From Chthonomonas sp. (GTDB lineage Bacteria; Armatimonadota; Chthonomonadetes; Chthonomonadales; Chthonomonadaceae), in assembly GCF_035294505.1 (NCBI RefSeq), contig NZ_DATGKU010000174.1, positions 73,610-137,609 of the forward strand: 64,000 nt of DNA, given 5' to 3'. How positions within the stretch are numbered: position 1 is the stretch's first letter; each line of letters begins with the position of its first letter. Position numbers and translations under genes: made by a program. This document shows positions 3,837-29,081 of this stretch, one piece after another. Under the pieces are notes generated by a model, which saw only the letters and a list, made by a program, of their open reading frames with translations, did not search any database and had not been told where the DNA came from.

Positions 3837-3941
3837 CTCCTAGCTGAGAAAACGACATAATAAAAGTTAACTTAAGGCCGGTACTCTTCTTTGTACCGGC
3901 ATTCTTTGCAATCTTCACGTTCTAAAAAAGGAGAAAGATTC

Positions 3942-4988: not shown

Positions 4989-4994
4989 ACCACC

Positions 4995-5780
4995 ATGTTG
5001 CTCGCGCTCGATGTCGGAAACACCAATATCGTCTTCGGGGTCTATCCCAATCATCGAGACCCAATCATCGGTCCTTGGCGGCTTCATACCGATCGCGATC
5101 GCACCGCCGACGAGCATTTTGTGCTTATCAAAGCGCTGCTCGAACACAATGGGCTTCATCTTAGCGATATCCATCATGTGGCTCTATCAAGCGTCGTTCC
5201 CACAATGAATGACACTTTGGTGGAACTGGCACAACGTTATTTCGGCGTACAGCCCTTCATCGTTACATCTCATGTTCAACTCGGTATCACCATCCACTAC
5301 TCACCACCCTCCGATGTGGGAGCCGACCGCCTTTGCAATGCGGTGGGCGCTTTCGCCCGCTATGGCGGCCCTGCCATCGTAGTGGACTTTGGAACGGCCA
5401 CCACTTTCGATGCCATCGCTCCTAATGGCGACTATTTAGGCGGGGCGATCCTGCCCGGCATCGGCATCTCGATGGATGCGCTCTTCCGCCAAGCCTCTCG
5501 CCTTTTCCGGGTGGAATTTGCCGCTCCTCCAAAAGCTGTCGGAACCAACACCGTCCACGCCATTCAAAGTGGTCTCGTCTTCGGTTATGCCGGCCAAACC
5601 GATGCCATGGTAGAGAGAATACGCAGTGAAATCGGGCAGAACGCCCGCGTCATTGCAACAGGAGGTTTGGCAGAACTGATCCACAGCGCAAGTCGAACGA
5701 TTGAGATCGTTGACCAGCTCGTTACCCTGGACGGTCTCCGCATCTTGTTTGAGCGAAACCACTCAGACGACTCGAAATAG
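4995..5780 (+). CDS. coaX: Type III pantothenate kinase
   Basis: 261 aa. N-terminus MLLALDVGNTNIVFGVY and overall length/pattern are typical of CoaX (Bvg accessory factor family). Confidence 0.9.
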   Translation: MLLALDVGNTNIVFGVYPNHRDPIIGPWRLHTDRDRTADEHFVLIKALLEHNGLHLSDIHHVALSSVVPTMNDTLVELAQRYFGVQPFIVTSHVQLGITIHYSPPSDVGADRLCNAVGAFARYGGPAIVVDFGTATTFDAIAPNGDYLGGAILPGIGISMDALFRQASRLFRVEFAAPPKAVGTNTVHAIQSGLVFGYAGQTDAMVERIRSEIGQNARVIATGGLAELIHSASRTIEIVDQLVTLDGLRILFERNHSDDSK

Positions 5781-7565: not shown

Positions 7566-7590
7566 GGGCGGGTTTGAAACCTGCTCCTAC
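7562..7590. repeat. REP-like palindromic element copy 1 (GTAGGGGCGGGTTTGAAACCTGCTCCTAC), bidirectional terminator-like hairpin
   Basis: 13-bp arms (two G-U wobbles on the + transcript) around a 3-nt centre. Overlaps the TAG stop of the + gene (7563-7565) and the CTA (reverse TAG) stop of the convergent - gene (7587-7589). A near-identical perfect palindrome occurs at 31569-31597. Confidence 0.6.
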
Positions 7591-10163: not shown

Positions 10164-10194
10164 AACTATCCCGATGCCACACAGAAGCCTTTCC

Positions 10195-10557
10195 TTAAGT
10201 AGGTAGCGGATACTCTTCTACCGGCGAAAAGTGTACCACCGTAACCGTGTCTTCAACGGAGATATCGCTAGAATAGATACGCCTGAGAAGAGCCACAACA
10301 TCATCCACAGAGCGGAACTCCGGGTTCTCCTTTTGAATCTCTCTCGGCGAGAGAGCATCTATGGTCTTTACCTCTACCCTATCCAATATGGCAGTGAAGA
10401 GCTTCTGACGCTTTCCGAAGCGCGGCCCTATCGTCACCCAAACGATCATCCCGGCTTTATACTTATCGGTCTTATCCCCAAGACGAATCGTCACTGTTTT
10501 ACGACCGGTACGTAAAGCCTCCTCATAGTACTCCGAATAGAAGTTGAGCGCATACAT
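10195..10557 (-). CDS. ASCH (PUA-like) domain protein
   Basis: 120 aa. ALRTGRKTVTIRLGDK...GMIVWV resembles the ASCH-domain G-K-K-T-E-R core. Low certainty. Confidence 0.45.
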   Translation of the reverse strand: MYALNFYSEYYEEALRTGRKTVTIRLGDKTDKYKAGMIVWVTIGPRFGKRQKLFTAILDRVEVKTIDALSPREIQKENPEFRSVDDVVALLRRIYSSDISVEDTVTVVHFSPVEEYPLPT

Positions 10558-10674
10558 AGGGTACGAGATATCCTCTTTGTCCTCTTCAACGGTTTATGGA
10601 GACCGTATTGCCTTCCCGTAAGAGCATCGGCCTCCTTCAAAGTCGGCATATGAGCCTAAAGTTTAGCACAAAAC

Positions 10675-12528
10675 TTAAGAGCCGTCAATTTCACGCCCCT
10701 CCTCTGCTGCGTTGTTATCGGCACGCTCCATTCGCTCGGGTGCGGAAACGCCGAGTAAGCCCAATAGGTTATTCAGCACTATCCGAGCGCAATTCACCAA
10801 CGCCAGTCGAGCCTGCACAAGAGAACGATCGGGCTCTCCCTGCGAATTAGGCAAGACCCGACAGTTCTCGTAAAACAGGTTCAACAGGCTGGCCAAATCT
10901 ATTGCGTAGCGCGTTAAGCGATGAGGGGCAAAACGCTCCGAGGCCGTTGCCACCTCCTCAGGATAGTCGGCCAGCTTTCGTAAAACCTCTAGCTCCCTCG
11001 GATGGGTCAGCAGATTCCGGTCTACCTGCGCTGCCGACAATACGGCAATGCCCATCTCTTCTGCCTTTCGGAGAATACTGCAAAGCCGCGCATGCGCATA
11101 CTGAACATAGTACACGGGGTTTTCGTTCGATTGACGCTTGGCCAACTCCACATCCACGGTGGCAGGAGTCTCATAGGAGTTCAGAAGGAAATAGAAGCGT
11201 GCCGCATCACGACCGATCTCATCTACCAAGTCTTCCTTCAGTTCGATGATGGCACCTTTTCGCTTGCCTCCAATAATGGCCTCTCCATCGCGCATCAGCG
11301 AAACCATTTGGGTAAGAATAATATATAGCCGCTCCACGGGATAACCAAGGGCCGCCACAGAAGCCCGCAAACGGGCGACATAGCCGTGATGATCGGCCCC
11401 AAAAATATCTACGAGGTGGGTAAAGCCACGCTCAAATTTGTCTCTATGATAGGCTGCATCCGCTGCGATATAGGTGGCCTTTTCATTTGAACGCACCAAA
11501 ACCCTGTCTTCATCGTCGCCAAAGGCGGATGTCTTCAACCAAAGTGCCCCATCCTTGCGGTAGGTATATCCACGCTCGGTAAAGAGGCGGATGACCTCCT
11601 CTACCGCTCCCGATTCGTAGAGACTACTCTCGAAAAACCAACGATCGAAGAAAACCCCAAACGCCTCCAACGCCTGCCGTTGCAACTCCAGGATAATGCG
11701 CAGTGTGGCTTCTCGAAAATATCGATCTTTCTCCTCCGCCTCGCTACTCGCGGTCTCCTCGTCTCCAAGCAGCTCCTTCACCACCGCGGTCTCGTACCGG
11801 TTTCCGATCTCCTCTACGATACGTCGGGCAATGTCGCGCACATATTCACCCAAGTAGCCATTTTTAGGGAAGGGAATGATCGGCTTACTCGCATCCCCAG
11901 TAGAAGGCTCGGTCTCCACATCGCCTTCCGGCATCGCAATGGGATAGCCAAGCTCTTGCAAGTAGCGAACCTTCACCGTCCGAGCAAAAAGCTCTAGCTG
12001 CAACGAGTTGAGCGCATCATTTACGTAGAACTCTCGCTGTACCTCGGCTCCCTCTGCTGCAAATAAGTTGGCTAACACGTCGCCCAGCGCCGCCGCACGA
12101 CCGTTTACAACGCTGATCGGGCCGGTTGGGTTCGCGCTAACAAACTCCAAAAGAATCTTCTGACCGACTCGCGCCTGAGAGCGCCCATAGTCTTTTCCTA
12201 ACTCCTCAATGCGCACCAAGGTGTCGTAAAGCCAGTTTGGATTCAAAAACAGGTTAAGAAATCCCGGCCCCGCCACCTCCACACGCTCAATAATCTTATC
12301 GGGGTCTTCAATATGCCGACGGATGATCTCGGCAATCGCGCGACTATCTGCCACATCGGTGAATTTACGCAGAGTCAACGCCAGGTTGCTTGAATAGTCC
12401 CCAAACTGCTTTGACGGGGGCATCTCGAGTTTTACCGTGAAATCATCTGTTGTCAGCTTTAGCTCACCGGCCTCACGCGCTGCCAAAACGGCTCGCCTGA
12501 GGATGTTTGCCAGCTTTTCCGTAATCAC
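10675..12528 (-). CDS. argS: Arginine--tRNA ligase
   Basis: 617 aa. N-terminus MITEKLANILRRAVLAAREAGEL... and overall organisation are typical of class I ArgRS, including an anticodon-binding C-terminal domain. Confidence 0.9.
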   Translation of the reverse strand: MITEKLANILRRAVLAAREAGELKLTTDDFTVKLEMPPSKQFGDYSSNLALTLRKFTDVADSRAIAEIIRRHIEDPDKIIERVEVAGPGFLNLFLNPNWLYDTLVRIEELGKDYGRSQARVGQKILLEFVSANPTGPISVVNGRAAALGDVLANLFAAEGAEVQREFYVNDALNSLQLELFARTVKVRYLQELGYPIAMPEGDVETEPSTGDASKPIIPFPKNGYLGEYVRDIARRIVEEIGNRYETAVVKELLGDEETASSEAEEKDRYFREATLRIILELQRQALEAFGVFFDRWFFESSLYESGAVEEVIRLFTERGYTYRKDGALWLKTSAFGDDEDRVLVRSNEKATYIAADAAYHRDKFERGFTHLVDIFGADHHGYVARLRASVAALGYPVERLYIILTQMVSLMRDGEAIIGGKRKGAIIELKEDLVDEIGRDAARFYFLLNSYETPATVDVELAKRQSNENPVYYVQYAHARLCSILRKAEEMGIAVLSAAQVDRNLLTHPRELEVLRKLADYPEEVATASERFAPHRLTRYAIDLASLLNLFYENCRVLPNSQGEPDRSLVQARLALVNCARIVLNNLLGLLGVSAPERMERADNNAAEEGREIDGS

Positions 12529-12568
12529 CTAATAGCCACTCCTCGAAAAAGATAAAAACGATCGTATC

Positions 12569-13804
12569 CTAGCGCAGAAACGCGCTGAGGGAGGGTATGT
12601 AAGAGATAAGAAGGGCAACAATTCCCATTCCGATAAGGGCCTGCAGCAGCCCCATACACCATATTTTTCGGAGAATATGTGGCCGCTTTGGATAGCTCTG
12701 CAAGTAGCGTTCGATCAGCTCTTGCCCGGCCTGAATGCCCTTCTCCAACTGATGCACACTCGCAGGACGCGTGGTGAACCAGGCCTGCAAAAAAGCCCCG
12801 ACACGACGCCATGTGAAGAGCGTCACCAAGCCTGCAAGCACGATAGCGGCATCCTGCAGCCACGGGAAGCAACTGGCCAGCTCCGCCACAAAGGCAAATA
12901 TTCCCATCGCTGCCACCAGATTCGTGCCACAGCGCGGGTGTACCCGAGGCATCCGCCGAACGACTGCCACAACAAGCGGCTCCTGGCGCTCTATGGCGTG
13001 AACCGTCTGGTGCTCTGCAGCGTGATAGCCTGCCAGCACCGAAAATCGCATCAAAAGGAGATAAGGCAAAATAACAACGCTACGCACACACACCGCGCAA
13101 GCCGACCACCACGGATGAGCCTCCTGAAGTGCGGCATTCATATTGAAAACCCAACGAGGAATAGATGGGACTAACAAGGCCAGTCGCTCTAGTCCCCAGC
13201 TCGAAAGCCATAGGCTTCCGAAAATGAGCAGACCCATAAAAGCTCCGGTTGCCACAAGAGCTAGATTGGATGCTCCGGCTTGGATGCGGCCATCGGTAAG
13301 GTAGACCCCAAACAGCGTGGCCATCCCCCCAATAGGCGGAAGTTGCGGACGCCACACAGGCTCGGGAAAGAACAGGTCGAGGGGATGAACATAGCCCAGG
13401 CAGTAGCCCTCTTTATCCACTACCGGCAGCGCCGGTAGGCCTTGGTCTAAACGGCTATGCCAGCGCTCGCGTAACATATCTAGCGAGGTCTCCGGCGCTA
13501 CGGTCTCCGCGGCCGGCTCGATAAAGTCGCCCACAGAGGCCCACTTTACCTCATCATCTAGTCCCTTCTCTTTGGCGTAACGCAACAGAGTTTCGCGCCT
13601 CACCATACCCATCAGATGGCCGTCAAGCGTTACCGGCAAGGCTTCTACTCCATAGGTTCGCATCAGATGTAACGCCCGCTCCATACTGTCCTCAGGAGCC
13701 GGCAGAGGCCCTTGACGCAACAGCCCCCTCAGCGTTAGCGGCCAGCGTTCTTGGGTTGCTACCGATGCATTTTGATCTAAAAACCTAACATCGCGATCTG
13801 ACAT
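12569..13804 (-). CDS. CBS-pair domain fused to DUF1385 (YqhQ-like) membrane metalloprotein
   Basis: N-terminal 130 aa show two CBS-like units (VEALPVTLDGHLMGMVRRETLL; LPALPVVDKEGYCLGYVHPLDLF). The C-terminal part has the DUF1385 signatures YHAAEHQ and HPRCGT plus several TM helices. Confidence 0.6.
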   Translation of the reverse strand: MSDRDVRFLDQNASVATQERWPLTLRGLLRQGPLPAPEDSMERALHLMRTYGVEALPVTLDGHLMGMVRRETLLRYAKEKGLDDEVKWASVGDFIEPAAETVAPETSLDMLRERWHSRLDQGLPALPVVDKEGYCLGYVHPLDLFFPEPVWRPQLPPIGGMATLFGVYLTDGRIQAGASNLALVATGAFMGLLIFGSLWLSSWGLERLALLVPSIPRWVFNMNAALQEAHPWWSACAVCVRSVVILPYLLLMRFSVLAGYHAAEHQTVHAIERQEPLVVAVVRRMPRVHPRCGTNLVAAMGIFAFVAELASCFPWLQDAAIVLAGLVTLFTWRRVGAFLQAWFTTRPASVHQLEKGIQAGQELIERYLQSYPKRPHILRKIWCMGLLQALIGMGIVALLISYIPSLSAFLR

Positions 13805-13836
13805 GGAAATCTATCATCTAAAAAAAGCGATTAGCG

Positions 13837-13861
13837 CCGATAGAGGCGGCGCTTTTGAAAA
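13837..13861. other. Palindromic hairpin AGCGCCG-ATAGAGG-CGGCGCT in divergent intergenic region. Followed by a U7 run on the minus strand
   Basis: 7-bp perfect stem. Reading the minus strand, the hairpin is followed 6 nt later by TTTTTTT, about 20 nt before the ATG of the CBS-DUF1385 gene. Possible leader attenuator or protein-binding site. Confidence 0.35.
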
Positions 13862-13882
13862 TTATACCTTACGCAGCCCTCA

Positions 13883-14941
13883 TTGAAGAAGAAGACTTGC
13901 CTTTGCAATTCGTATCGGAATATATATCTCTGGCAAATCTCTGGAATTCGCAGACCGAACCTATCCTCACTACCAGACTTCAGAAAGGGTTGCAACTTGA
14001 CACCAGAAGACCTCGCACAAAAAGCGCGACAGATCGCCAATGCCGTGGAAACGGCCATAATCGGCAAAAGCGAAGTGGTCGAGTTGGCGCTTGCCGTGCT
14101 GCTAGCCGAAGGCCATCTGCTCATTGAAGATATCCCCGGTGTGGGCAAGACCACGCTCGCCAAAGCGCTGGCGCGCGCTTTGGGCATCTCCTTTAAACGC
14201 ATCCAGTTCACGCCCGATCTCCTCCCTGCCGACATCACCGGCTCCTCCGTTTATAACCAAAAACAGGGGGAATTCGAGGTGCGTCCCGGCCCGCTCTTCG
14301 CCAATATCGTGCTTGCCGATGAGATCAATCGGACAACACCTAAAACCCAGGCCGCCCTGCTCGAATCGATGGAAGAACGCCAAGTTACCATAGATGGCAA
14401 CTCGATTCCCCTTCCCTCCCCCTTCTTTGTCATCGCGACTCAGAACAATATCGAAATGGCCGGCACCTATCCCCTCCCCGAAGCTCAACTTGATCGCTTC
14501 ATGGCGCGCCTGGCCATGGGTTACCCCGATCGCGCCGCTGAACGACGCATCCTATCTCAGCAGCAACATACCCGCCCTTTAGAACAGATCGAACCTGTTA
14601 CCCATGCCGAAGAGATTGTCGCCATCCAAAAACAGGTGCGCCAAGTTCACGTGGATGCAAGCCTTCAAGAATATGTGCTAGATATTGTAAACTATACGCG
14701 AAACCAGCCCCAAGTGGTGTTGGGGGCTAGCACGCGCGGCGCCTTGTGCCTGATGCACGCCGGGCAGGCATTAGCGGCGATAAGAGGCCGCACCTATGTG
14801 AAACCGGATGACATCAAAACACTTGCGGTGGCCGTGCTCGCTCATCGCATTATTGTAAGACCGGAATTCCGACTGCGGGGTACAACCCCTCAAAGTTGCG
14901 TGGAAGAGGCCATACAGCGTATTCGCGTGCCGGTTGACTAG
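13883..14941 (+). CDS. MoxR-family AAA+ ATPase
   Basis: Walker A GVGKTTLAKALA and the MoxR-typical LIEDIPGVGKT context. The first ~38 codons of the tracked ORF look non-native. The true start may be TTG at 13997 (AAAGGG 6 nt upstream), giving LTPEDLAQKARQIANAVETAIIGK. Confidence 0.85.
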   Translation: MKKKTCLCNSYRNIYLWQISGIRRPNLSSLPDFRKGCNLTPEDLAQKARQIANAVETAIIGKSEVVELALAVLLAEGHLLIEDIPGVGKTTLAKALARALGISFKRIQFTPDLLPADITGSSVYNQKQGEFEVRPGPLFANIVLADEINRTTPKTQAALLESMEERQVTIDGNSIPLPSPFFVIATQNNIEMAGTYPLPEAQLDRFMARLAMGYPDRAAERRILSQQQHTRPLEQIEPVTHAEEIVAIQKQVRQVHVDASLQEYVLDIVNYTRNQPQVVLGASTRGALCLMHAGQALAAIRGRTYVKPDDIKTLAVAVLAHRIIVRPEFRLRGTTPQSCVEEAIQRIRVPVD

Positions 14942-14974
14942 TGAGCGCCTCGTTGAGGAAGGATAGGTTAGAGC

Positions 14975-16237
14975 ATGCAGCATAGCAAATGGATTGTGCT
15001 CGGTTTTGGAGCGCTCTGCCTGATCACTGTAGCCACGGTGATCCCGCCGGCCCAACATCTCTACTATATGGCTGCCATCCTCATCACCCTGCCTGCTATC
15101 TCCTATTTTGCGGGCTGGGCTATGCTGCGCGGGCTTACATTTCAACGCGAACTCCCTTCTGCCGCTATGGAAGAGGAAGAGATCGATATCGTCTATGTGG
15201 TTTCAAATGACACCCGTTTTATGCGCTTTTTCCTCAGCACCTATGAGGAGTTTCCGCCCTGGCTTACCCCCGTTGAAGAGGAGCCGCTCTTTAATGTGCC
15301 CGCAAAGGGCACCGTCCGTGTCGCTCGCAGGGTGCGCTGTCTACGCCGTGGCGTCTATAACACAAATAGTTTTCATGTCTCCGCGATGGATCCGCTCGGG
15401 GTATTCGCATTTACGCAGTCGGTGGCAACAGAGGGCGAACTCGTCGTCTATCCTTCCCCATATAAACTTCCTCAAACCGTTATAGGCGGCGGCGAGCAGT
15501 TTGGGCTACAACAGATCGTGGCCTCTTTTCGTCAAGGTACAAGCGTAGACCTCTCCGGCGTCAGGCCCTATGTGCCAGGAGACCCCCTTCGCCGAATTCA
15601 TTGGCGCCAAACCGCCCGAACGGGTCAGCTTAATGTCGTGGAGTTTGAGGAGATGCAGTCCTCGCGTCTGGTTTTGCTCCTCGATGCCCATCGCGGCTGC
15701 GATAAAGGCATAGAACCCCTGACCCCACTGGAGTACATGATTAAAGTGGCTGCAGCGCTGCTTACGGAAGCCCTCGAAGCCGGAGCCTGGAGCCGGCTCT
15801 GTATTACCGATGGACGTGCGCCGGCCGGCTTCCTCGACACCGGAGGAGATCGAGGTCAGACCCACCGTCACCTTTTGCTCGGCGAGCTGGCTCGGGTTGA
15901 GGCTACCGGTGAAATCTTGCCCAGCGATGTTATCTCCGCCATCTATCCCTCTCTCACGCCCGGCCTTGTGCTCGTGCTTATTACCACAACGGAAGACCCT
16001 GCCCTCCCGCAGGTGCTTTCCGATATCGTCACGGCACTCGGCATCCGCGCCTTTGTTATCGGCTTTGATGTCTCTTCTTTCCCCGAGTCCCCTCCAACAA
16101 CCGGCAATTTCCATAACTTTCTCTCCTCTCTCGCCGCGGCTAAAGCGCAAACCCTCTTGCTAAGCTATCAAGCGGAAGCAGGGCTTGTTATAAAGGAGCA
16201 CTTCTATGAACCCAGAAGCCACGCCTCGCACCGTTGA
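14975..16237 (+). CDS. DUF58 domain protein (MoxR partner) with N-terminal TM segment
   Basis: DUF58 core VRPYVPGDPLRRIHWRQTARTGQLNVVEFEE. AGGAAGGA SD upstream. Directly downstream of the MoxR gene. Confidence 0.8.
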   Translation: MQHSKWIVLGFGALCLITVATVIPPAQHLYYMAAILITLPAISYFAGWAMLRGLTFQRELPSAAMEEEEIDIVYVVSNDTRFMRFFLSTYEEFPPWLTPVEEEPLFNVPAKGTVRVARRVRCLRRGVYNTNSFHVSAMDPLGVFAFTQSVATEGELVVYPSPYKLPQTVIGGGEQFGLQQIVASFRQGTSVDLSGVRPYVPGDPLRRIHWRQTARTGQLNVVEFEEMQSSRLVLLLDAHRGCDKGIEPLTPLEYMIKVAAALLTEALEAGAWSRLCITDGRAPAGFLDTGGDRGQTHRHLLLGELARVEATGEILPSDVISAIYPSLTPGLVLVLITTTEDPALPQVLSDIVTALGIRAFVIGFDVSSFPESPPTTGNFHNFLSSLAAAKAQTLLLSYQAEAGLVIKEHFYEPRSHASHR

Positions 16238-20205: not shown

Positions 20206-22368
20206 TCACGAAATCCCTCCGGACAGTCTCTCGGTTCGCCTGCCTCCTTCGCACAACACCAGCCCTAACCCCTGCTGCGCTAACAGGGCCGCCGCCGGAA
20301 CGCCGGCATCGTTGAACAACAGGGAACAGACAACGCCTCCATAAAATCCCAGCCACATCGCGCGTTCCACAACTCCCTGCTGCGCTTTCTGTAAACGATG
20401 GAGGTAACCCGTAGCCATAAGATTGCCTAGTAAAACGGCCGCCCATGGACTATGGAACAATAGAAATCCTTCCATCCTCAGTTTTCGCAAAACGACTACG
20501 GCAAAACTTCCACCGCCCTCACCTTTCAAAGCCCGCGCGAGATGCGATTCATTGGCACCATGAAAATGAAGGTCTATTAACGCCAAACCCTCGAAAAGCA
20601 GCAGTGCCAGCACACCAAGCCAGGCTATCTCTTTCCAGCCAACCCGATCTTTTATCGAAGCGAAGAGAGCAAGACCGAATGCCCCGATCCCTGTCGGTAT
20701 CGCCCCAACCTTTGCTCCCCATTGCGGCCACGCCACAACAAATAAAATAACAGCATAGACTACTACCGCCTTTAGCCATTTTCCCTTTTCCCCTATCAGC
20801 CACGGCAACATCACCAACGCAGCCCCGAACAAGGCACCCATGTACTCGTTGCCAATACCAAAGAACCGTGCCCCCTCCATCATCGAGTAGCTCATCCAAG
20901 CCCGGCGAATAAGATGAGAGCCTGTTAGCAGATCTCCGACCACGCATACTACGAAAACGCCGGCCATTGTCCTAAATACCGATACGGCGTCCCGTTGGGT
21001 ACGCCACATCCATTCCCCCAGAGCAGCAAGACCCATCAAGCTGATCCCTAAGGCGATTCCGGCGGTAATTTCATTGAAAGCAAACAATGCCGGCAGCACA
21101 AGCAGGAGAAGAGGCAAAAGTCCGATTATCAATCCAAAAACCGATGGTGAGAGCTTCTGCCGTTTCCAGCATACCACGCCGCCCAAAATACACAACAGTT
21201 GTAGGGTTGGCAAGCCTCCATAAAGATTCTGCAACTCGGCTTGCATCACAAGCGACCGAAAATAGTCGCAAAAACTTTTGTAGGAGAAGCTTCGCCCTGC
21301 TTTAAACTCCCAAGCACGCCCTACAACGCTACGCGGTATGCGGTGTAGGCCAAGCTGTCGTGCGATTGTGGGCAAGAGATCGGTATTTACCCCAAGCCCA
21401 TCCCACCGGGTAGAAGGGGGAAAGATCGTTCCATGTGGAACTCCCTGCCCCATTAAAAGCACCGGAGCTAAACGCTCACCTGTCGTTGCATTGGAACTTG
21501 GGCCTGGAGCGCAGCACCAGAAAATGGCGTCGGGACGGCTTCGAACCCACTCGATCACACCCAGCATCAACCGACCTAGCCGCCCTAGCGCCTCGCGACG
21601 ATATGTCGCGACCATAGAAGGGAGACAGGAAGTGGCCTCCTCTGTCGCTCTCTGCAGATCAAAGAAGCTGATAACGGTCAGGCGTGTATTTGGCGGCAGT
21701 TGATTGAAGGCCCTAAGCATTCTGTCAACATCCGCCTCTGCGCCTTCCGGTGCCAGGAGGTTTGCCCTCGCACAAAAGAGTCGAGGCCCTGCCAAGTCCA
21801 CAAAGCCATCCGCATCCATGGCCACCAGCAAAGCCTCATTCGCACGGACGTTGTTGTCAGCATCCGCAAAGGCCGCAGTCGCCCCGCCATAGAGGTGCAC
21901 AAACGCACCTAAGAGACCGATATCTATCGGGTACCCGATGCGCCTGTTGACCTCATAACATTGTCGGAGCAAGGCCACATTCAACGCGCTTCCCTCAAAT
22001 CTGTTCATGGATGTAGGGGGATATTCTGCCAAAATGCCATTGGGTGGCGCTACTGCACGACAGCCCGTTCCTAGGCTCAACAACAGCGAAGCAAGCCGAT
22101 CGGCACCCTTTGCATTCAGCAGGTTGCGTGGCACGTTTGATGCAGCCCGACACACCATCCAGCCGCATACTCCCTGCGACGAAAACGCCTGCATAGCCGG
22201 GCGGAGAGGGAGTGTTTTCAAATCGGCACAGGTAAGGTCGGGGACAATGAGCAGAACAATACGTGGTGCCGCCGTGCAACTTCGCTGCAATACAAGCAGC
22301 AGCCAGAACGCCAACCAGCCCACAATTCGTTTTCTGACAGATAAGTGATGAATGGAATCCACACGCAT
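20206..22368 (-). CDS. Hypothetical polytopic membrane protein with N-terminal exported domain
   Basis: 720 aa. Signal/TM at the N-terminus, about 300 aa soluble domain, then about 10 predicted TM helices. No confident family assignment. Confidence 0.45.
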   Translation of the reverse strand: MRVDSIHHLSVRKRIVGWLAFWLLLVLQRSCTAAPRIVLLIVPDLTCADLKTLPLRPAMQAFSSQGVCGWMVCRAASNVPRNLLNAKGADRLASLLLSLGTGCRAVAPPNGILAEYPPTSMNRFEGSALNVALLRQCYEVNRRIGYPIDIGLLGAFVHLYGGATAAFADADNNVRANEALLVAMDADGFVDLAGPRLFCARANLLAPEGAEADVDRMLRAFNQLPPNTRLTVISFFDLQRATEEATSCLPSMVATYRREALGRLGRLMLGVIEWVRSRPDAIFWCCAPGPSSNATTGERLAPVLLMGQGVPHGTIFPPSTRWDGLGVNTDLLPTIARQLGLHRIPRSVVGRAWEFKAGRSFSYKSFCDYFRSLVMQAELQNLYGGLPTLQLLCILGGVVCWKRQKLSPSVFGLIIGLLPLLLLVLPALFAFNEITAGIALGISLMGLAALGEWMWRTQRDAVSVFRTMAGVFVVCVVGDLLTGSHLIRRAWMSYSMMEGARFFGIGNEYMGALFGAALVMLPWLIGEKGKWLKAVVVYAVILFVVAWPQWGAKVGAIPTGIGAFGLALFASIKDRVGWKEIAWLGVLALLLFEGLALIDLHFHGANESHLARALKGEGGGSFAVVVLRKLRMEGFLLFHSPWAAVLLGNLMATGYLHRLQKAQQGVVERAMWLGFYGGVVCSLLFNDAGVPAAALLAQQGLGLVLCEGGRRTERLSGGIS

Positions 22369-22547: not shown

Positions 22548-23528
22548 ATGCGCCTTGTGTTGGGTGTAGATGGAGGGCAAACGCGCACTCTGGCCGTTGT
22601 TGCCGACGAAACGGGCAAGCTGCTCGGTTTCGGCATCGGCGGCCCTGCCAATCACATCCACGAGCCGGGCGGCATCGAGCGCGTACAACGCTCCCTTACC
22701 GATGCCATTCAGGGCGCTTTGAACACTGCCGGGCTGCCTCAAGGTCGCCTAGCTGCCGCCTGTTTAGGCATGACTGGTAGCTCTGCAGCTATGGAGGCCA
22801 TCTGTACCCCACTCGTGCCTGCGGAACAGATAATCTTCGGTCACGATACACGCATTGCATTTTATTCCGTCACGTTTGGTAGCCCGGGTGTTGTTGTTAT
22901 TGGAGGTACCGGCTCGGTTGCCTACGGTGTCAACGCGCAGGGGGAAGAGGCGCTTGTCGGCGGCTGGGGTTATCTTATGGGCGATGAAGGAAGCGGCTAC
23001 TGGATCGCTCTGAAGGCGCTCAATGCCTGTTGTCGCGCTGCCGACGGCATCCTCCCTCCTACTCTCCTACAGCCGCTTATTCTACGGCACCTGGAGGTGG
23101 AGAACCTAAAGCAGCTTCATACCCTCCTCTATTCCGGCAAGCTTTCTCGCCCCGACATCGCCGCTCTGTCCGAAATCGTTGGGATGGCGGCAGCACAAGG
23201 CGATGCCATAGCACAACAAATCTTGCGTGAGGCAGGTCGGGAGCTTGCTCTCCTTGCCGTTACCGCTATCTGCCGATTGGGTATGGAGAAACAAGAGGTC
23301 ACCGTTGGCACCGTCGGCGGTGTTTTTCGGGCAGGTCGCTCCATCCTACGCCCCTTCCGCACCGCCATTAAGCGACGAGCCCCCTATGCCTGTATAACCT
23401 CTGCTCGTCTTCCGGCGGCGGTGGGAGCCGCGCTCATCGCGTTGGAGGCCATTGGCGTTCCCCCCAACGAACCGCTCCTTCATCATCTCAGGCAGAGTCT
23501 AAAAAAGAGAAACCTCTTGAAGTCTTGA
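22548..23528 (+). CDS. BadF/BadG/BcrA/BcrD-type ATPase (N-acetylglucosamine kinase-like, ASKHA superfamily)
   Basis: MRLVLGVDGGQTRTLAVVADETGKLLGFGIGGPANH is the typical N-terminal phosphate-1 motif of this family. 326 aa. Confidence 0.7.
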   Translation: MRLVLGVDGGQTRTLAVVADETGKLLGFGIGGPANHIHEPGGIERVQRSLTDAIQGALNTAGLPQGRLAAACLGMTGSSAAMEAICTPLVPAEQIIFGHDTRIAFYSVTFGSPGVVVIGGTGSVAYGVNAQGEEALVGGWGYLMGDEGSGYWIALKALNACCRAADGILPPTLLQPLILRHLEVENLKQLHTLLYSGKLSRPDIAALSEIVGMAAAQGDAIAQQILREAGRELALLAVTAICRLGMEKQEVTVGTVGGVFRAGRSILRPFRTAIKRRAPYACITSARLPAAVGAALIALEAIGVPPNEPLLHHLRQSLKKRNLLKS

Positions 23529-23609
23529 GCCATTTTGTGCGTAAATAAGAAATAAGCGGCAATAATATAAAAAGACGCGCATATTGGTGCGAGCGCGCAT
23601 GAAGGTGGT

Positions 23610-25244
23610 ATGGAAACACATTGGGCTATTGATTTAGGAACAACCAATACACTCATCGCCAAGTGGGTTGGAACCCACGCGGTAACTATCGCCCTAGAAG
23701 ACCTGGTGGATTACGAGCCGGCCTGGCAAACGCCTCTTATCCCGTCGGCCATCTTTTTTCAAGATACGCAGCGGGCTATTATCGGAAAGCCGGCCCTTGC
23801 CTCTCGCGAAATTCTGCACGGGCTCGATCTGCAGGGGCTAGGCCCACTCGCGCGTTCCTTCAAGAGAACTCTGGCCCGCGCAAGCCAACAGGCCGTTGCA
23901 CAGGTAGGCTCAGAGACCATTTCGGCTCGCCAATGCGCCACCACCTTTTTACGCGAGCTGCTGGCCGCCACCGCCGAATACGAGCGTCAAAAATCGGACC
24001 CACACCGCACGCGCCTACAGCGTTTCATTAGCCTCTTACGATGGTGGCGCAAGGAGGGACAGGTAACCGATCTCACGATGACGGTGCCTGTGGAGAGCTA
24101 CGAGCCTTATCGGGCTGAACTCTACCAGATCGCCCGCAAACTCGGTGTCAGCCATTTCCGCACCCTCGATGAGCCGGTGGCCGCGGCCCTCGGCTATGGT
24201 ATTGACCTTAGCGATGAAAAGCATCTGCTTGTTGTGGATTTCGGTGGAGGCACGCTCGACCTCGCCGTTGTTCGAACACACCCTACCCACCCCTCCGGTC
24301 GTGATGCCTCCCAACATCGCGCTACCCTCCTGGCCGGCCGCGGCGCTGAACTTGGCGGCGAAACGGTAGACCAATGGCTTGCCGACTTCGCCTGCCAAAA
24401 GCTACGCGCTCATCAGATGGCTTTGCGACCGGTGCTTCTCGCTCAAGCCGAAGCCGTTAAGAAAGACCTTAGTAACAAGGCCTCCATCGCCGATAGCAGC
24501 TTTTTCCTCCTACAAGGTGCCGGACGCATCGAAATTACGCGCCAGGAGTTTATTGACCTGCTGGAAGAACGCGGCCTCTACCGCACTCTCGAGGTGTTAA
24601 CCGACGCGGTTCTGGACGACTGCCGTCATGAACTTGATGAGGCCGACATAGATGCCGTTCTCCTCGTTGGGGGTTCGACCCTTCTCCCCGGCGTCCGCGA
24701 TCTCTTCGAGAAGCTTTTCGGGCCTCAGCGAGTTCACTACTGGGAGCCGTTTGAGGCCGTAGTAAAGGGAGCGGCCATCTTCGGAGCCGGATATAGCGTA
24801 GACCAGATCATCCACCATGACTACGCCATCCGCGTCTATAACGATGCGGAACAGAAAGCCGAATATGAGCGTCTGATCCGAAGGGGCACGAGCTATCCTA
24901 CTCCGGTGCCCTTTGAGACACGCTACTACGCCGTAACCGAAGGCCAGCAGCTGTTCCGCCTCCCCGTCTGCGAGGTCGGCTACGCGGGGCGTATGAATCT
25001 GCCGTGGAAGCGCCGTAGCAACGGCAATGAATACTGGATACCTACCGAAGCCGAGGAGGCCGAGTGCGTTATCACCCTCAACGAGGGCGATACTTTGCGC
25101 CTCATACCGCCAGGACAAGGGCCCCAGGCCCGCCTGCGAATCGATTTCTCAATAGATAGCAATCGCTATCTCTGTGCAACGATTCACGATCTGCTGAAAC
25201 AGCGCGACCTGCGTACGGATGAACGTGTTGTAAAACTGCGCTGA
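23610..25244 (+). CDS. Non-canonical Hsp70-family ATPase (DnaK-like nucleotide-binding domain, atypical short C-terminal region)
   Basis: WAIDLGTTNTLIAKW (phosphate 1), LVVDFGGGTLDLAVV (phosphate 2), VLLVGGSTLLPGVRDLFEKLFG (adenosine motif). The C-terminal ~150 aa is not a canonical substrate-binding domain. Confidence 0.7.
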   Translation: METHWAIDLGTTNTLIAKWVGTHAVTIALEDLVDYEPAWQTPLIPSAIFFQDTQRAIIGKPALASREILHGLDLQGLGPLARSFKRTLARASQQAVAQVGSETISARQCATTFLRELLAATAEYERQKSDPHRTRLQRFISLLRWWRKEGQVTDLTMTVPVESYEPYRAELYQIARKLGVSHFRTLDEPVAAALGYGIDLSDEKHLLVVDFGGGTLDLAVVRTHPTHPSGRDASQHRATLLAGRGAELGGETVDQWLADFACQKLRAHQMALRPVLLAQAEAVKKDLSNKASIADSSFFLLQGAGRIEITRQEFIDLLEERGLYRTLEVLTDAVLDDCRHELDEADIDAVLLVGGSTLLPGVRDLFEKLFGPQRVHYWEPFEAVVKGAAIFGAGYSVDQIIHHDYAIRVYNDAEQKAEYERLIRRGTSYPTPVPFETRYYAVTEGQQLFRLPVCEVGYAGRMNLPWKRRSNGNEYWIPTEAEEAECVITLNEGDTLRLIPPGQGPQARLRIDFSIDSNRYLCATIHDLLKQRDLRTDERVVKLR

Positions 25245-25278
25245 TCGCCACAAATAAGGAACATGAAGGAGATGGCCG

Positions 25279-27087
25279 ATGCCCACTCAAAGAGAGGCAG
25301 GCCTGCGTGCACTCAAACAAGGGGATTTTGAAAGGGCGCGTGTGTTGTTGGAAAGCGCCTGTTGGCAGTACCCCGAAGACTTCAAAGCACACTACCTACT
25401 CGGTGCCGTCTATTATAACTGCCGGCGCTACGACCAGGCCGTCTCGGCTCTACAGAGAGCCGTGTTTCTTAAGCCGCATTCGCCACAAGCCCACTACAAC
25501 CTCGGCATTGCCCTGGAACGCATAGGCAAATGGGAAGATGCGGCCAATGAGGTGCGCAAAGCGCTGGAACTCGACCCACACTATGAGGTCGCCTCCGGCA
25601 CCCTACGCAAATGGGCACGCGCCGGTAAAATCTCTCTAACTCCTGAAGAAGAAGCCAAACTGTTGGCCGGCCTGCCCCGCAACTGGCTAACTCAACAAAA
25701 TGCCGACACATCGGCCGCTTCTATGGAGGCACCTTCCGACGCAGTGCAGAGTTCCCCAGAAGCCGAACCTCAGAAGGCAGCCCCATCCGCACAAGCAGCC
25801 ATGCTGCCGCCCTTTGTTGAGATCGCGCCTTCGAGGCCGGAAAGCATCAGCCCGCCTCTCAATCAACCGATTACCGCTCAGGATACCCCCTCCGATTTGT
25901 CATCTGTAAATCCGCCTAATCTTGCCAGCGATTCCGCAACGGTCGTCGAGACAACCACTCAACCGGGGGAGGCGCGGACACAGACCTCCTCCGATGAAAT
26001 CAAAGAGGATTCTCTACAGACGGATATCCCTGTTCTGCAGCCAACCTTGCTCACACCACCACCCATCGAATGGTCTCAACCTGACGAGGTGCCGCTGGTA
26101 CCCGAGCCGCCCGATCCTATCCTCTTGCAGGAAGTCATGGAGTCCGACGACGTTGCCACAACAACACCCCCGCCCATTCTCTCTGAAGTGGTTTCACCAC
26201 CCAAAGCGCTTCAAGAGAAAACCGCTGATAATAATACGGAACCGGCAGAGCCATCAGCCATAGCGGTACCTGAAGAGGTATCCGCCCCACCTGAAGTAAC
26301 AGAACCTTCCGACGTCAACGTCCTCGACCTGCTTGCCCCACCCGAGGTGTTCGAGCTACCCACCCCCGAATCACTCCCAACGCACCCCGTGCCTCCCCCG
26401 GTTATCGAGACAAGGGAAGAGGAATCGAATCTCGTAAGGGCTTCTGCACCGACCGATTCCGCTCTCCAACAAGAGGATATCAGCCCTACCACTACCGCTC
26501 TGGAGCCACCTGCTGTTGCTCTCAACGATCCCACAGTGCTCGAAACAGAGACAACGCCCTCCTCCACCGTATCTCCGCAAGCCCAACCACAGCCCACATT
26601 CTCGGAGCCTTCGATTGGCGAACCGCTTCTCGGTCACGCCAGCCGTGAATCCGTACAAGAGAGAGCCTCTGCCCAACAGACTGCCGCTTCCCCTACCCAC
26701 GAGCCATCTCAATCGGCAGAAGCGCCTGAAGAGGCTGTAAGTGCCGAGATTCCACCGCACGTTCAACCCAAATCGCGCCAAACAAAAGCACGGGGCTCGG
26801 TCGAAGATGACGCGGAGGACTATAGCTACTTTGTGCCCGTTCCTTGCCAAGAGGCCACCGAAGCGTTACAAATCGCCATCGCCAGCCTCATCCTCTTTGT
26901 AATAGGTGTTGTTTTAGGCCCCATCGCCATTCGTAAAGCAATCGAAGCCAAACGTTGGATCGCTGCTAGCCCCTATTTCACAGGCGCCACACAAGCAAAC
27001 ATCGCCCTCGTACTGGGCATTCTCAGCACCGTCATTTCCCTGCTCTTCTGCATTCACTACGCCCCTTCCCTATTCTCGACCCATTAG
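25279..27087 (+). CDS. TPR-repeat protein with long Pro/Thr/Ser/Glu-rich linker and C-terminal DUF4190-like two-TM domain
   Basis: N-terminal ~120 aa TPR (AHYLLGAVYYNCRRYDQAVSALQRAVFLKPHSPQAHYNLGIALERIGKWEDA). About 350 aa low-complexity PT-rich linker. C-terminus AIASLILFVIGVVLGPIAIRKAIEAKRWIAASPYFTGATQANIALVLGILSTVISLLF resembles DUF4190. Confidence 0.6.
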   Translation: MPTQREAGLRALKQGDFERARVLLESACWQYPEDFKAHYLLGAVYYNCRRYDQAVSALQRAVFLKPHSPQAHYNLGIALERIGKWEDAANEVRKALELDPHYEVASGTLRKWARAGKISLTPEEEAKLLAGLPRNWLTQQNADTSAASMEAPSDAVQSSPEAEPQKAAPSAQAAMLPPFVEIAPSRPESISPPLNQPITAQDTPSDLSSVNPPNLASDSATVVETTTQPGEARTQTSSDEIKEDSLQTDIPVLQPTLLTPPPIEWSQPDEVPLVPEPPDPILLQEVMESDDVATTTPPPILSEVVSPPKALQEKTADNNTEPAEPSAIAVPEEVSAPPEVTEPSDVNVLDLLAPPEVFELPTPESLPTHPVPPPVIETREEESNLVRASAPTDSALQQEDISPTTTALEPPAVALNDPTVLETETTPSSTVSPQAQPQPTFSEPSIGEPLLGHASRESVQERASAQQTAASPTHEPSQSAEAPEEAVSAEIPPHVQPKSRQTKARGSVEDDAEDYSYFVPVPCQEATEALQIAIASLILFVIGVVLGPIAIRKAIEAKRWIAASPYFTGATQANIALVLGILSTVISLLFCIHYAPSLFSTH

Positions 27088-27106: not shown

Positions 27107-28057
27107 ATGCACATTCTCGTCACAGGCGCAACCGGTTTTCTGGGTAAAGCCCTCTGCGCTCAACTGCTGAGGGATGGACACACCCTAGCGGTTGTAACAC
27201 GCCACCCTGAGGGAGTTCCTCGCCTTTTTGGAGCGAATGTCAAAAGCATCTGTTGGAACGATAAAGAGGCTCTTCACACAGCTTTAGAAGAGTCTCAGGC
27301 TGTGATCAACTTAGCGGGGGCTTCTATCGCCGGTAAGCGCTGGAACGCTGCCTACAAGGAGGAGCTGGTGCGCTCGCGTGTGGAGACCACACATACCCTC
27401 GTGGAGTGCATGCGCAACTGTAAAAATCCTCCCTCCACTCTTCTCTCCGCCTCTGCCGTAGGCTACTACGGAGACTGTAACGATAAGATGATCACCGAAG
27501 AGCGGCCCGCCGGCTCCGATTTTTTGGCAGAGCTTTGTCTTCAGTGGGAGACCGAGGCCAACCGCGCGCGCCAATGCAAAGCTCGTGTGGCGACCATGCG
27601 ACTGGCTACGGTGCTTGGGCCAGGCGGTGCCTTAGCGAGGATGCTACGGCCTTTCCCCTCCATCCCCTTCAACCCATGGAAACTCGGTTTAGGAGGCCCG
27701 TTCGGATCGGGAAAACAGTGGATGCCCTGGATCCATCTTGAAGATGCCGTCGGCCTCTTCCTCTGGGCACTTCAGGAAGATCGTCTGGATGGCCCGTGCA
27801 ACGCCGTAGCGCCCGAAACGATAAGCAATCTAGAGTTCGCCCGCGCCCTTGCAGCCATCTATGGGAAGCGCCCCTCCTTCCCGCTCCCCGCATTCGTATT
27901 GCGTATCCTTTTAGGAGAGTTTGCCGATTCGCTGCTCGCCAGCCAGCGCGTGGTTCCTACCGTAGCAAAACGCCTTGGCTATACCTACCGGTATCCCGAG
28001 CTTATTCCGGCCCTAAAACAGAGCGTAACCGCGTTGGAGACAAGGCCGAAGGGCTAA
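27107..28057 (+). CDS. TIGR01777-family NAD-dependent epimerase/dehydratase (YfcH/SDR39U1-like, with DUF1731 C-terminus)
   Basis: MHILVTGATGFLGKAL Rossmann motif. About 300-aa length. C-terminal PLPAFVLRILLGEF region is typical of this family. Confidence 0.8.
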   Translation: MHILVTGATGFLGKALCAQLLRDGHTLAVVTRHPEGVPRLFGANVKSICWNDKEALHTALEESQAVINLAGASIAGKRWNAAYKEELVRSRVETTHTLVECMRNCKNPPSTLLSASAVGYYGDCNDKMITEERPAGSDFLAELCLQWETEANRARQCKARVATMRLATVLGPGGALARMLRPFPSIPFNPWKLGLGGPFGSGKQWMPWIHLEDAVGLFLWALQEDRLDGPCNAVAPETISNLEFARALAAIYGKRPSFPLPAFVLRILLGEFADSLLASQRVVPTVAKRLGYTYRYPELIPALKQSVTALETRPKG

Positions 28058-28103: not shown

Positions 28104-29081
28104 TTAGCGTCCTTTTTGATGCGTAACCTGTTTCTTGGACTGTACTTTCTCCTTTTGCTTGATAGCCTGCTCTAACCGTGCACGTAGGCGCGAGAGATAC
28201 TCATAACCGGCCTGCTCTTCGGGCGTTTTAGGTCTAATGGGGGTAACCGTAGGTGGATAGGCAACGTACTTGCCGTTTATTTCATAATACATTTTGCCAT
28301 TGTGCAGACCGATGGACGGATAACCAACCTCTGTGGCATACTGCCTCCAAAGCAGGTTTGCTGCTCGGCGCAAGTATTTGAGTTGCTTCACAGAAAGACC
28401 GGTGGGAATCGGCGGTTGCGGCCCCTTCCAGTGGCTGTGGGCAGCACGATCCAATACGGCAAACATCCTCTCTCCTCCAATACGCCTTATTAAATCTTTG
28501 GCAAGAAACGATTCGGAGGGAAAAGGCTTATACACATCTACATCCTCATAGGCCTGGCAAAGGGCGTCCACGCTGAGAGGGCTATGTGTTTGCAAATAGA
28601 ACTGGTAAAGATTATCGAGACAGAGCTTCACTAACTTTTGCTCAAAAGGCGGATACTCGGCAAATGGCCGCAAGATGCGGTCGCGCTCTTGTTTCATGTA
28701 GAGGGCCAGCATACCCAGTTTAAACAGGTTCATGGGCGTCGGTTGGGTTTGCGCATCCTGTTGCCACCGTTCTAAAAGAATATCGCGCTTATGTCCTATC
28801 GCCTGCAGGTATCCTACCGCAGCCACATAGTCCTGAGGGTTTTGGAGCATCTCCTTTTGGAACAGAGGCGCTGCCTGATCGTACTTGCCGGCTTTCAAGA
28901 GAGAGTAGGCCTCGCGGAATAAGGGTGTCTCTGTTTCAACGTATTCCGTTAATGGAATGGAGAACCAGAAGCAACCGGGAAAGTAGGCATTGTCGGTAAA
29001 GTTATCTGCCCAGGCAGCTGCTAGGCAACAGACCAACAGAAAACTAACTAGCATAGATACACATGCACAATTTTTCTTCAT
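28104..29081 (-). CDS. Secreted hypothetical protein (325 aa), lower-GC gene
   Basis: Signal peptide MKKNCACVSMLVSFLLVCCLAAAWA. TAAGGAG SD on the minus strand. No recognisable domain. Noticeably more AT-rich than its neighbours. Confidence 0.5.
   Translation of the reverse strand: MKKNCACVSMLVSFLLVCCLAAAWADNFTDNAYFPGCFWFSIPLTEYVETETPLFREAYSLLKAGKYDQAAPLFQKEMLQNPQDYVAAVGYLQAIGHKRDILLERWQQDAQTQPTPMNLFKLGMLALYMKQERDRILRPFAEYPPFEQKLVKLCLDNLYQFYLQTHSPLSVDALCQAYEDVDVYKPFPSESFLAKDLIRRIGGERMFAVLDRAAHSHWKGPQPPIPTGLSVKQLKYLRRAANLLWRQYATEVGYPSIGLHNGKMYYEINGKYVAYPPTVTPIRPKTPEEQAGYEYLSRLRARLEQAIKQKEKVQSKKQVTHQKGR

Follow-up and report, generated by a model that had tools for sequence, protein, structure and literature searches.

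A 64,000-nucleotide stretch of DNA from Chthonomonas sp. (contig NZ_DATGKU010000174.1, positions 73,610 to 137,609; hereafter the window) carries, one directly after the other on the same strand, a gene for an Hsp70-like ATPase and a gene for a protein in which tetratricopeptide repeats (TPRs) are followed by a long linker and a C-terminal membrane module. We propose that the two proteins form a two-component module, in which an ATP-driven lidless clamp would receive its specificity or its location from a membrane-tethered TPR scaffold with which it is presumed to be in contact; we put the probability of this reading at about one half. It is built on direct observations, namely the domain architectures of both proteins, the intact catalytic motifs of the ATPase, the conservation of the pair, the expansion of TPR paralogues beside the ATPase gene and the repeat proteins fused to, or encoded next to, more distant relatives of the ATPase. 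The features of the pair, taken from the listing of open reading frames (ORFs), their translations and the analyses described below, are:

23610-25244, + strand: Hsp70-like gene (544 aa; ORF listing and translation), predicted to encode a lidless Hsp70-family ATPase with a nucleotide-binding domain (NBD) at about residues 1-393, the linker ...VDQIIHHDYA..., a beta-sheet substrate-binding domain (SBDbeta) at residues 404-542 and the C-terminus ...VVKLR
25245-25278, + strand: spacer of 34 nt between the Hsp70-like and TPR genes, with a Shine-Dalgarno-like motif, GAAGGAG, 7 nt upstream of the ATG
25279-27087, + strand: TPR/membrane gene (602 aa; ORF listing and translation)
25279-25668, + strand: TPR head, residues 1-130, three TPR repeats with capping helices (Pfam TPR families, best E 9e-16)
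25669-26844, + strand: acidic Pro/Glu/Ala/Ser/Thr-rich disordered linker of ~390 aa (composition; AlphaFold2)
26845-27087, + strand: DUF4190-like module of two hydrophobic helices, predicted membrane anchor (sub-threshold DUF4190 match, AlphaFold2 helices, hydrophobic segments)

The Hsp70-like ATPase and its relatives

The Hsp70-like protein matches the Pfam family PF00012 (Hsp70) with an E-value of 6e-31 and 107.8 bits against a cut-off of 20.6, the match spanning only profile positions 4-373 of 599, which correspond to the NBD. An initial annotation, made from the sequence alone, had credited the protein with all NBD motifs, and this holds: besides the match above the cut-off, the catalytic motifs (DxGTTN, K85, E188, DFGGGTLD with D210/T215/D217, and LVGGST) are invariant among 37 close and 25 distant family members. 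The same annotation had described the protein as lacking both a canonical substrate-binding domain and a lid. The loss of the lid is supported by an AlphaFold2 model (37 homologues in the alignment, mean predicted local distance difference test score (pLDDT) 79.6), whereas the loss of the substrate-binding domain is contradicted by that model, by Foldseek and by a profile of the C-terminus. In the model, the NBD (residues 1-393) is followed by a low-confidence linker (397-402) and an all-beta domain (404-542), in which the sole helix comprises residues 480-486, and the chain stops two residues past the last strand. Foldseek searches against the PDB gave two-domain Hsp70s as the best matches, with alignments of 565-600 columns, including DnaK without SBDalpha (5obu, E 1.5e-29), lid-truncated BiP (7a4u) and Ssz1 (6sr6). 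The profile, made from the last 150 residues of 20 family members, matched almost only Hsp70 SBDbeta chains in the PDB (best E 2e-4), with LIxRGTxYPT in register with LIKRNSTIPT and PPxxxGxxRLxVxFxVDxNRxLxVTVxD in register with a second stretch of 28 residues. The domain is diverged and carries an insertion of roughly 25 aa, as estimated by eye. Of the hallmarks of the Hsp70 superfamily, the protein has the NBD motifs and an SBDbeta preceded by a conserved linker, and has neither the lid nor the disordered tail. By model and alignment, then, the protein is lidless and not SBD-less, only the alpha-helical lid being missing, and the gene product is predicted to be a cytoplasmic, ATPase-competent member of the Hsp70 family. 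Apart from this correction to the substrate-binding domain, the observation that prompted the analysis was essentially right.

The closest public locus (L001) encodes an Hsp70-like protein that shares 99% identity with the window protein, the adjoining genes there being 81-96% identical. Across the family the protein is 72-83% identical (up to 99% within the Chthonomonadaceae), compared with 36-57% for its neighbours. Judged from these identities, the constraint on the protein is unusually strong for an uncharacterised paralogue.

Among 1.84 billion cluster representatives, searched exhaustively, 168 clusters (at 50% identity) had E below 1e-30; they align with the protein end to end and are mostly 510-570 aa long. 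These share a signature consisting of the linker IxHDYA, GTxYPT, CE(V/I)G, LNE and a C-terminal VVxLR, are found in Armatimonadota, Chloroflexota, Gammaproteobacteria and Cyanobacteria, and are annotated only as 'Hsp70 family protein'. The window protein scored far below the equivalog cut-offs for DnaK (99 bits against 648), for HscA (122 bits against 620) and for PRK11678, which we take to be the YegD model (57 bits against 331). Its identity to HscC of Escherichia coli (NC_000913.3) is 28% and confined to the NBD, with the alignment ending at query residue 431, early in SBDbeta, and it has no lid. The possibility, raised in the initial annotation, that the protein belongs to a known family such as HscC is not borne out by scores or architecture; on these comparisons, it is assigned to a broad, unnamed family of lidless Hsp70s that is not HscC, HscA, DnaK or YegD.

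Repeat scaffolds recur among these relatives, both in cis and in trans. Fifteen of 150 cluster representatives are repeat fusions: all 14 representatives of at least 790 aa have a C-terminal fusion at the position of the lid (12 HEAT, 2 WD40), and one representative of 642 aa is likewise a HEAT fusion. The neighbourhoods of distant relatives were analyzed for 12 standalone representatives with readable contigs, plus one plasmid match. A HEAT-repeat gene lies beside the Hsp70-like gene, or in the same apparent operon, in five of the 12, namely P0123 (Gammaproteobacteria), P0134 and P0169 (Chloroflexota), P0129 and P0133; these HEAT partners are soluble, except for one with an N-terminal hydrophobic helix. 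Repeat scaffolds in cis and in trans make a TPR partnership in the Chthonomonadaceae plausible by analogy. Other relatives are found in a recurrent cluster of the order GrpE-Hsp70-DUF1257-(ATP-binding protein)-DUF2997-AAA ATPase, sometimes including FGE-sulfatase-domain genes, and one has only a GrpE-like gene alongside. The linkage to GrpE argues that the family runs a genuine Hsp70-type nucleotide cycle. A literature search found no paper describing this cluster as a system; it was located at:

L067 (NZ_CP112875.1, Pseudanabaena galeata plasmid), 7123-15280: GrpE-Hsp70-DUF1257-DUF2997-AAA cluster
L068, 1387-8057: the same cluster
L065, 232-4632: the same cluster
L061, 12-839: the same cluster

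In L061, an RVT_1 reverse transcriptase and an FGE-sulfatase-domain gene (3823-5634) lie just upstream of an Armatimonadota Hsp70-like member, a layout that resembles a diversity-generating retroelement.

The putative TPR partner and its conservation

The neighbourhood of the Hsp70-like gene, the conservation of which the initial annotation had proposed to examine, was compared across 53 loci from GTDB species representatives, with neighbours mapped by tblastn, ORF calling and a hidden Markov model (HMM) of the TPR head. Thirty-six of these are Chthonomonadaceae loci with readable downstream sequence, in which the Hsp70-like proteins are 72-99% identical. A TPR-head gene lies directly downstream on the same strand in 27 of the 36 species-level loci, so the two genes are indeed co-conserved. 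The gap between the two genes is 10-34 nt in 12 of 19 measured pairs and 60-550 nt in some loci, and two or three TPR paralogues stand in tandem in seven loci. Across the 53 loci, the HMM detected 33 orthologous heads, all of them directly downstream of Hsp70-like genes, and no copy upstream of any Hsp70-like gene; the whole 64-kb window holds a single copy. When flanking ORFs were clustered, the TPR head was found in 24 loci (33 ORFs), followed by rsmB-like genes (11), yfcH (9) and badF (8), a count that leaves out three further TPR loci picked up solely with the HMM or tblastn. No neighbour other than the TPR-head family is broadly shared, genes upstream and further downstream being shuffled, and Chthonomonas genomes are reported to have operons that are unusually dispersed (PMC4959169). 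The association of the two genes is more than chance. The pair is carried by Chthonomonas calidirosea (locus L029), a member of a culturable genus, and the Hsp70-like ATPase was found in 51 Chthonomonadales or Armatimonadota species-level genomes. In three loci without a TPR gene (L002, L003 and L005), an rsmB-like gene lies 0.2-2 kb downstream of hsp70; since such a gene follows the TPR gene or genes in eight other loci, the TPR gene looks to have been lost from these three.

In the window protein, TPR families of Pfam match residues 1-105 and DUF4190 (PF13828) matches residues 533-589 with E-values of 4e-5 to 4e-6 and 23.8-26.9 bits, below the Pfam cut-off of 35, which the orthologue from L015 passes (36.3 bits). 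The linker (residues 119-530) is composed of 16% P, 12% E, 11% A, 11% S and 9% T and has a net charge of -54. A single-sequence AlphaFold run gave pLDDT values of 87-97 for the head (residues 1-130) and below 50 for most of residues 148-520, and placed two long terminal helices at 523-561 and 569-600. Among the orthologues, the heads are 32-48% identical to that of the window, and the linkers are mostly rich in P, Q, Y and G and 60-250 aa long, unlike the acidic linker of the window. The membrane module invariably lies at the C-terminus of the partner, after 60-400 aa of low-complexity linker, and the modules themselves differ: of 29, 14 are Yip1, 10 DUF4190 (E 0.01 or better) and one RDD, with the rest of other types, including a DUF2628-like type recognized by eye only. 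That the head stays constant while the anchors vary suggests that all heads share a single cytoplasmic ligand, presented in different membrane contexts. Searches from the TPR side, with a single head or with a profile of 26 heads, yielded nothing but short fragments with TPRs and TPR proteins of a generic kind, none with an informative context.

No signal peptide is present on the TPR heads of the window or its orthologues, and Yip1 proteins have an N-in topology. Both points favour a cytoplasmic TPR head.

Some loci contain TPR genes of another kind. Stand-alone TPRs some 3.5-5 kb away in L033, L037 and L048 were considered as split heads and rejected, being clearly different, generic TPRs. 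They adjoin large multi-pass membrane proteins, a type of protein (776-859 aa) encoded on the opposite strand near TPR-less hsp70 orthologues of Chthonomonadales at the following positions:

L033, 8727-11504, opposite strand: large multi-pass membrane protein
L040-L042, about 7580-10170, opposite strand: large multi-pass membrane protein of the same kind
L048, 10565-13341, opposite strand: large multi-pass membrane protein of the same kind

The membrane protein is preceded by a small TPR protein of generic type in L033 and L048; in L040-L042 its N-terminus contains or adjoins a TPR-like stretch. We presume from sequence motifs only that these membrane proteins are YfhO-like, and the TPRs near them are probably unrelated to the TPR-head family. 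At L007 (7858-9533), an ORF for a TPR head that has no membrane part overlaps, in a different frame, an ORF of the Yip1 type; the two probably derive from a single partner gene broken by a frameshift (sequencing error or pseudogene), and a similar frame break is seen in L004.

Proposed mechanism and alternative explanations

In the mechanism that we propose, the lidless ATPase would cycle between ATP and ADP, clamping extended peptide segments in its SBDbeta with fast on and off kinetics, and a repeat scaffold would give it partner or client specificity: a TPR protein in trans here, HEAT or WD40 repeats in cis or in trans in the relatives. The adaptor would consist of a conserved cytoplasmic head of three TPRs, a long flexible linker and an interchangeable membrane module (DUF4190 in the window; Yip1, RDD and others elsewhere). 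Because the scaffold of the Chthonomonadaceae would be anchored in the membrane, ATPase activity would be concentrated at the cytoplasmic face; alternatively, the ATPase might act on the disordered tether or the C-terminal membrane module of the adaptor itself. The contact between TPR head and ATPase, the cytoplasmic position of the head, the co-transcription of the genes and the identity of the clients are all parts of the model that we infer.

Several observations weigh against this proposal. The initial annotation had implied docking of the kind known between eukaryotic TPR proteins and Hsp70, which we reject. In the BLASTP register against TPR1 of Hop, four of the five carboxylate-clamp residues are missing from the head, the window having R5, L9, L40, Q70 and N74 where Hop has K8, N12, N43, K73 and R77; L9, L40 and N74 are held in the consensus of 26 aligned heads, and position 70 is mostly Q. 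The ATPase, for its part, ends in ...ERVVKLR (VVxLR in the family) and has no EEVD tail. With docking of the eukaryotic type excluded, any contact must use another surface. Most of the 26 heads share Q70, Y73, N74 and E80, with H38 and Y40 less consistently kept, and one possibility is that contact is made through a conserved concave face of the head, to which these residues would belong. Nor was a J-domain protein found in the window or in 52 Chthonomonadales loci by phmmer with the J-domain of E. coli DnaJ, a search that returned one match, the positive control, in a DnaJ-linked Acidobacteriota locus (L052). The orientation of the anchor raises a further difficulty. The loop between the DUF4190 helices contains three to six Lys/Arg and its N-terminal flank is neutral to acidic; by the positive-inside rule the loop would be cytoplasmic, and with a plain hairpin the TPR head would end up extracellular. 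For the head to be cytoplasmic, the first helix would have to be re-entrant, as in IFITM/dispanin proteins, and a weak CD225 match was obtained in one membrane module. The HEAT and WD40 relatives, moreover, are only ~30-40% identical to the window protein, so they serve as an analogy. Finally, the TPR gene is absent from nine of the 36 Chthonomonadaceae loci and from all 16 orthologues (56-65% identity) of other Chthonomonadales, and all positive loci fall in one bacterial family, which leaves phylogenetic inertia reduced as an explanation and yet able to contribute.

This distribution is what would be expected if there were no functional link, the pair reflecting inherited synteny or operon hitch-hiking and the TPR/membrane proteins being a lineage-specific expanded family. 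The abundance and promiscuity of TPR proteins would fit such an account, as would the gaps of 60-550 nt in some loci, which leave room for separate promoters. We nevertheless consider it quite unlikely, given that the pair persists in 27 species-level genomes amid shuffled flanks in a lineage of dispersed operons, that the gain of new paralogues, differing in their anchors, is confined to this position and that the relatives are independently fused to other repeat scaffolds. A role of the downstream proteins as clients instead of adaptors also appears unlikely. As tail-anchored-like proteins they would need the lidless Hsp70 as a cytoplasmic holdase or insertion helper, with the TPR head binding some other ligand. 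This would account for membrane modules that always lie C-terminal behind 60-400 aa of low-complexity linker (the DUF4190 anchors being the last 70-80 residues), for the conservation of the pair and for a TPR head that has no known Hsp70-docking clamp. An insertion helper should, however, track the membrane module, whereas here the head is constant and the modules vary; the HEAT and WD40 repeats fused to the relatives, or encoded beside them, are soluble and have no membrane part; and Yip1-type modules, with five or more transmembrane helices, can as a matter of general knowledge be targeted co-translationally.

We also considered a signalling or conflict switch, in which the lidless Hsp70 would act as a STAND-type NTP switch with TPR, HEAT or WD40 repeats as sensors. 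The WD40 and HEAT array fusions do resemble STAND architectures, some relatives lie near RVT_1 and FGE-sulfatase, AbiEii, PIN or RelE genes or in the GrpE-DUF1257-DUF2997-AAA clusters, a weak PADLOC match to PDC-M61B was obtained (E 8e-6), and GTPase-centred conflict systems are known to include Hsp70 components (PMC7159879). The context in the window, in contrast, is housekeeping (holA, transglutaminase, sugar kinase, short-chain dehydrogenase/reductase (SDR), GH116), no effector, GTPase or nuclease is encoded beside the pair, and an ATPase that is 72-99% identical and present in 51 species-level genomes is unlike patchy, fast-evolving defence genes, all of which makes a switch improbable. 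Identity as a defence system was rejected on two grounds, the weakness of the only PADLOC match and the housekeeping context. The initial annotation, for its part, had suggested a unit of three genes in which a BadF-type ATPase encoded upstream, the Hsp70-like ATPase and the TPR protein, the first two both of the ASKHA superfamily, would act jointly. The three genes do share a strand and short gaps in the window, and the order badF-hsp70-[TPR]n-yfcH recurs in about nine loci of one sub-clade. Outside this sub-clade, no association with badF was seen in the sampled neighbourhoods of distant relatives. The BadF-type gene is adjacent to hsp70 in only 8-10 of the 36 Chthonomonadaceae loci, and its product is 44-57% identical between genomes whose Hsp70-like proteins are 75-80% identical. 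The product is, moreover, a member of PF01869 (BcrAD_BadFG; E 1e-44, 153 bits against a cut-off of 31.5), falls short of the NagK_SO3507 equivalog (129 against 370) and has a MurNAc/GlcNAc kinase (8zo3, E 3e-40, full-length alignment) and hexokinase as its best solved relatives, from which it is predicted to be a MurK/NagK-like sugar kinase. The neighbourhood data largely refute the three-gene system, which we regard as highly improbable. We read the sugar kinase and the YfcH-type SDR as ordinary neighbours in local synteny within one sub-clade, and the functional unit suggested by these comparisons is a module of two genes, Hsp70-like and TPR.

Flanking genes and comparison with known systems

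The pair belongs to a run of four same-strand genes separated by 81, 34 and 19 nt. The ORF coordinates and the first two gaps are exactly as initially annotated; the fourth gene, which had not been included, encodes an SDR that matches TIGR01777 above its cut-off (NCBIfam). Genes two (Hsp70-like) and three (TPR) are each preceded by a good Shine-Dalgarno-like motif, and a terminator scan found no terminator-like hairpin in the 34-nt spacer; promoter and terminator predictions yielded no usable indication of how the operon is organised. The flanking members of the run are:

22548-23528, + strand: BadF-type gene (326 aa; ORF listing and translation)
27107-28057, + strand: YfcH-type SDR gene (316 aa)

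Divergent from the sugar-kinase gene is a gene (20206-22368, - strand) for a 720-aa protein with a large soluble N-terminal region and about 10 C-terminal transmembrane helices, which matches no Pfam or NCBIfam family; its counterpart in L001 shares 86% identity with it, and an 800-aa membrane protein of L044 shares 24%. The gene between yfcH and a GH116-like gene (28104-29081, - strand) encodes a protein of 325 aa, with an N-terminus that resembles a signal peptide and no more than a faint match to TPRs; it is absent from L001, which is otherwise collinear and the closest locus, and is therefore a recent insertion or deletion.

The locus offers a concrete, testable handle on one family of lidless Hsp70s with a conserved genetic partner. 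If the pair were confirmed, Hsp70 targeting in bacteria would extend beyond J-domain proteins, and the common membrane modules DUF4190, bacterial Yip1 and RDD would gain a first functional context. The fusions in other phyla point to repeat scaffolds as a specificity element in place of a lid or a J-protein. In its widest form, which we offer tentatively and think somewhat unlikely, the proposal is that in a widespread unnamed class of Hsp70s (at least 168 clusters) the lid has been functionally replaced by a repeat scaffold, HEAT or WD40 when fused and HEAT or TPR in trans, that selects clients and locations without a J-protein, the version of the Chthonomonadaceae being a family of TPR adaptors tethered to the membrane by interchangeable anchors of the Yip1, dispanin-like or RDD type. 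On this widest reading, the result would be a dedicated Hsp70 machine close to the membrane, of a sort that has not been described in bacteria.

The closest parallels in domain architecture are other Hsp70s whose lids are missing or shortened. According to a 2026 review, many 'DnaK derivates' that lack a lid are found in bacteria with complex proteomes and are described there as functionally unknown (PMC13580251). These derivates, yeast Ssz1 and human HSPA14, and engineered DnaK without SBDalpha have the same arrangement of NBD, linker and SBDbeta with no functional lid, and Ssz1 works only inside a fixed complex with its partner zuotin. The window family differs in its identity of only ~20% to these proteins, in its own signature and in its partners, which are repeat scaffolds and not a J-protein. 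By our literature search, the subfamily is known only among such unnamed 'derivates', and no description was found of a membrane-tethered TPR partner family. The initial annotation's statement that such a pair is not a described chaperone system accords with this, no paper on one having been found.

A specialised, shortened Hsp70 encoded beside dedicated partners is also seen in HscC of E. coli, with DjlB and DjlC. DjlC is membrane-anchored. In a review, the HscC partners are suggested to act on membrane proteins, and HscC retains a shortened lid. The resemblance of the window protein to HscC is limited to 28% identity over the NBD, and its partner is a TPR head where HscC has J-proteins; J-domain partners comparable to DjlB and DjlC were not found nearby in the window. 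The hscC locus of E. coli K-12 (L058, NC_000913.3, 1-7394) contains two sets of three genes, ybeQ-ybeR-djlB and ybeT-ybeU-djlC, each comprising a Sel1-repeat (TPR-like) protein, a DUF1266 protein and a J-protein. A repeat-protein neighbour is, by virtue of these Sel1-repeat genes, present at the one characterised specialised Hsp70 locus as well.

With Tom70, Toc64, Sec72, Hop and CHIP the module proposed here would share a concept, that of a module of three TPRs, often tethered to a membrane, that recruits a cytosolic Hsp70. It departs from them in the absent clamp, in a C-terminus of VVKLR and not EEVD, and in anchors (DUF4190, Yip1, RDD) that are unrelated to theirs. Non-canonical Hsp70s, some of them without a peptide-binding domain, occur together with TPR-fused or J-fused partners and GrpE in the GTPase-centred conflict systems (Kaur et al., 2020; PMC7159879), and some relatives of the window protein likewise lie beside GrpE. 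In contrast to the Hsp70s of those systems that lack the domain, the window ATPase keeps its SBDbeta, and among the nine genes around the pair none encodes a GAP1-N2 GTPase, an FNIII-repeat protein, a tubulin or an effector, which sets the lidless ATPase and its TPR partner apart from the conflict systems that they resemble in part.

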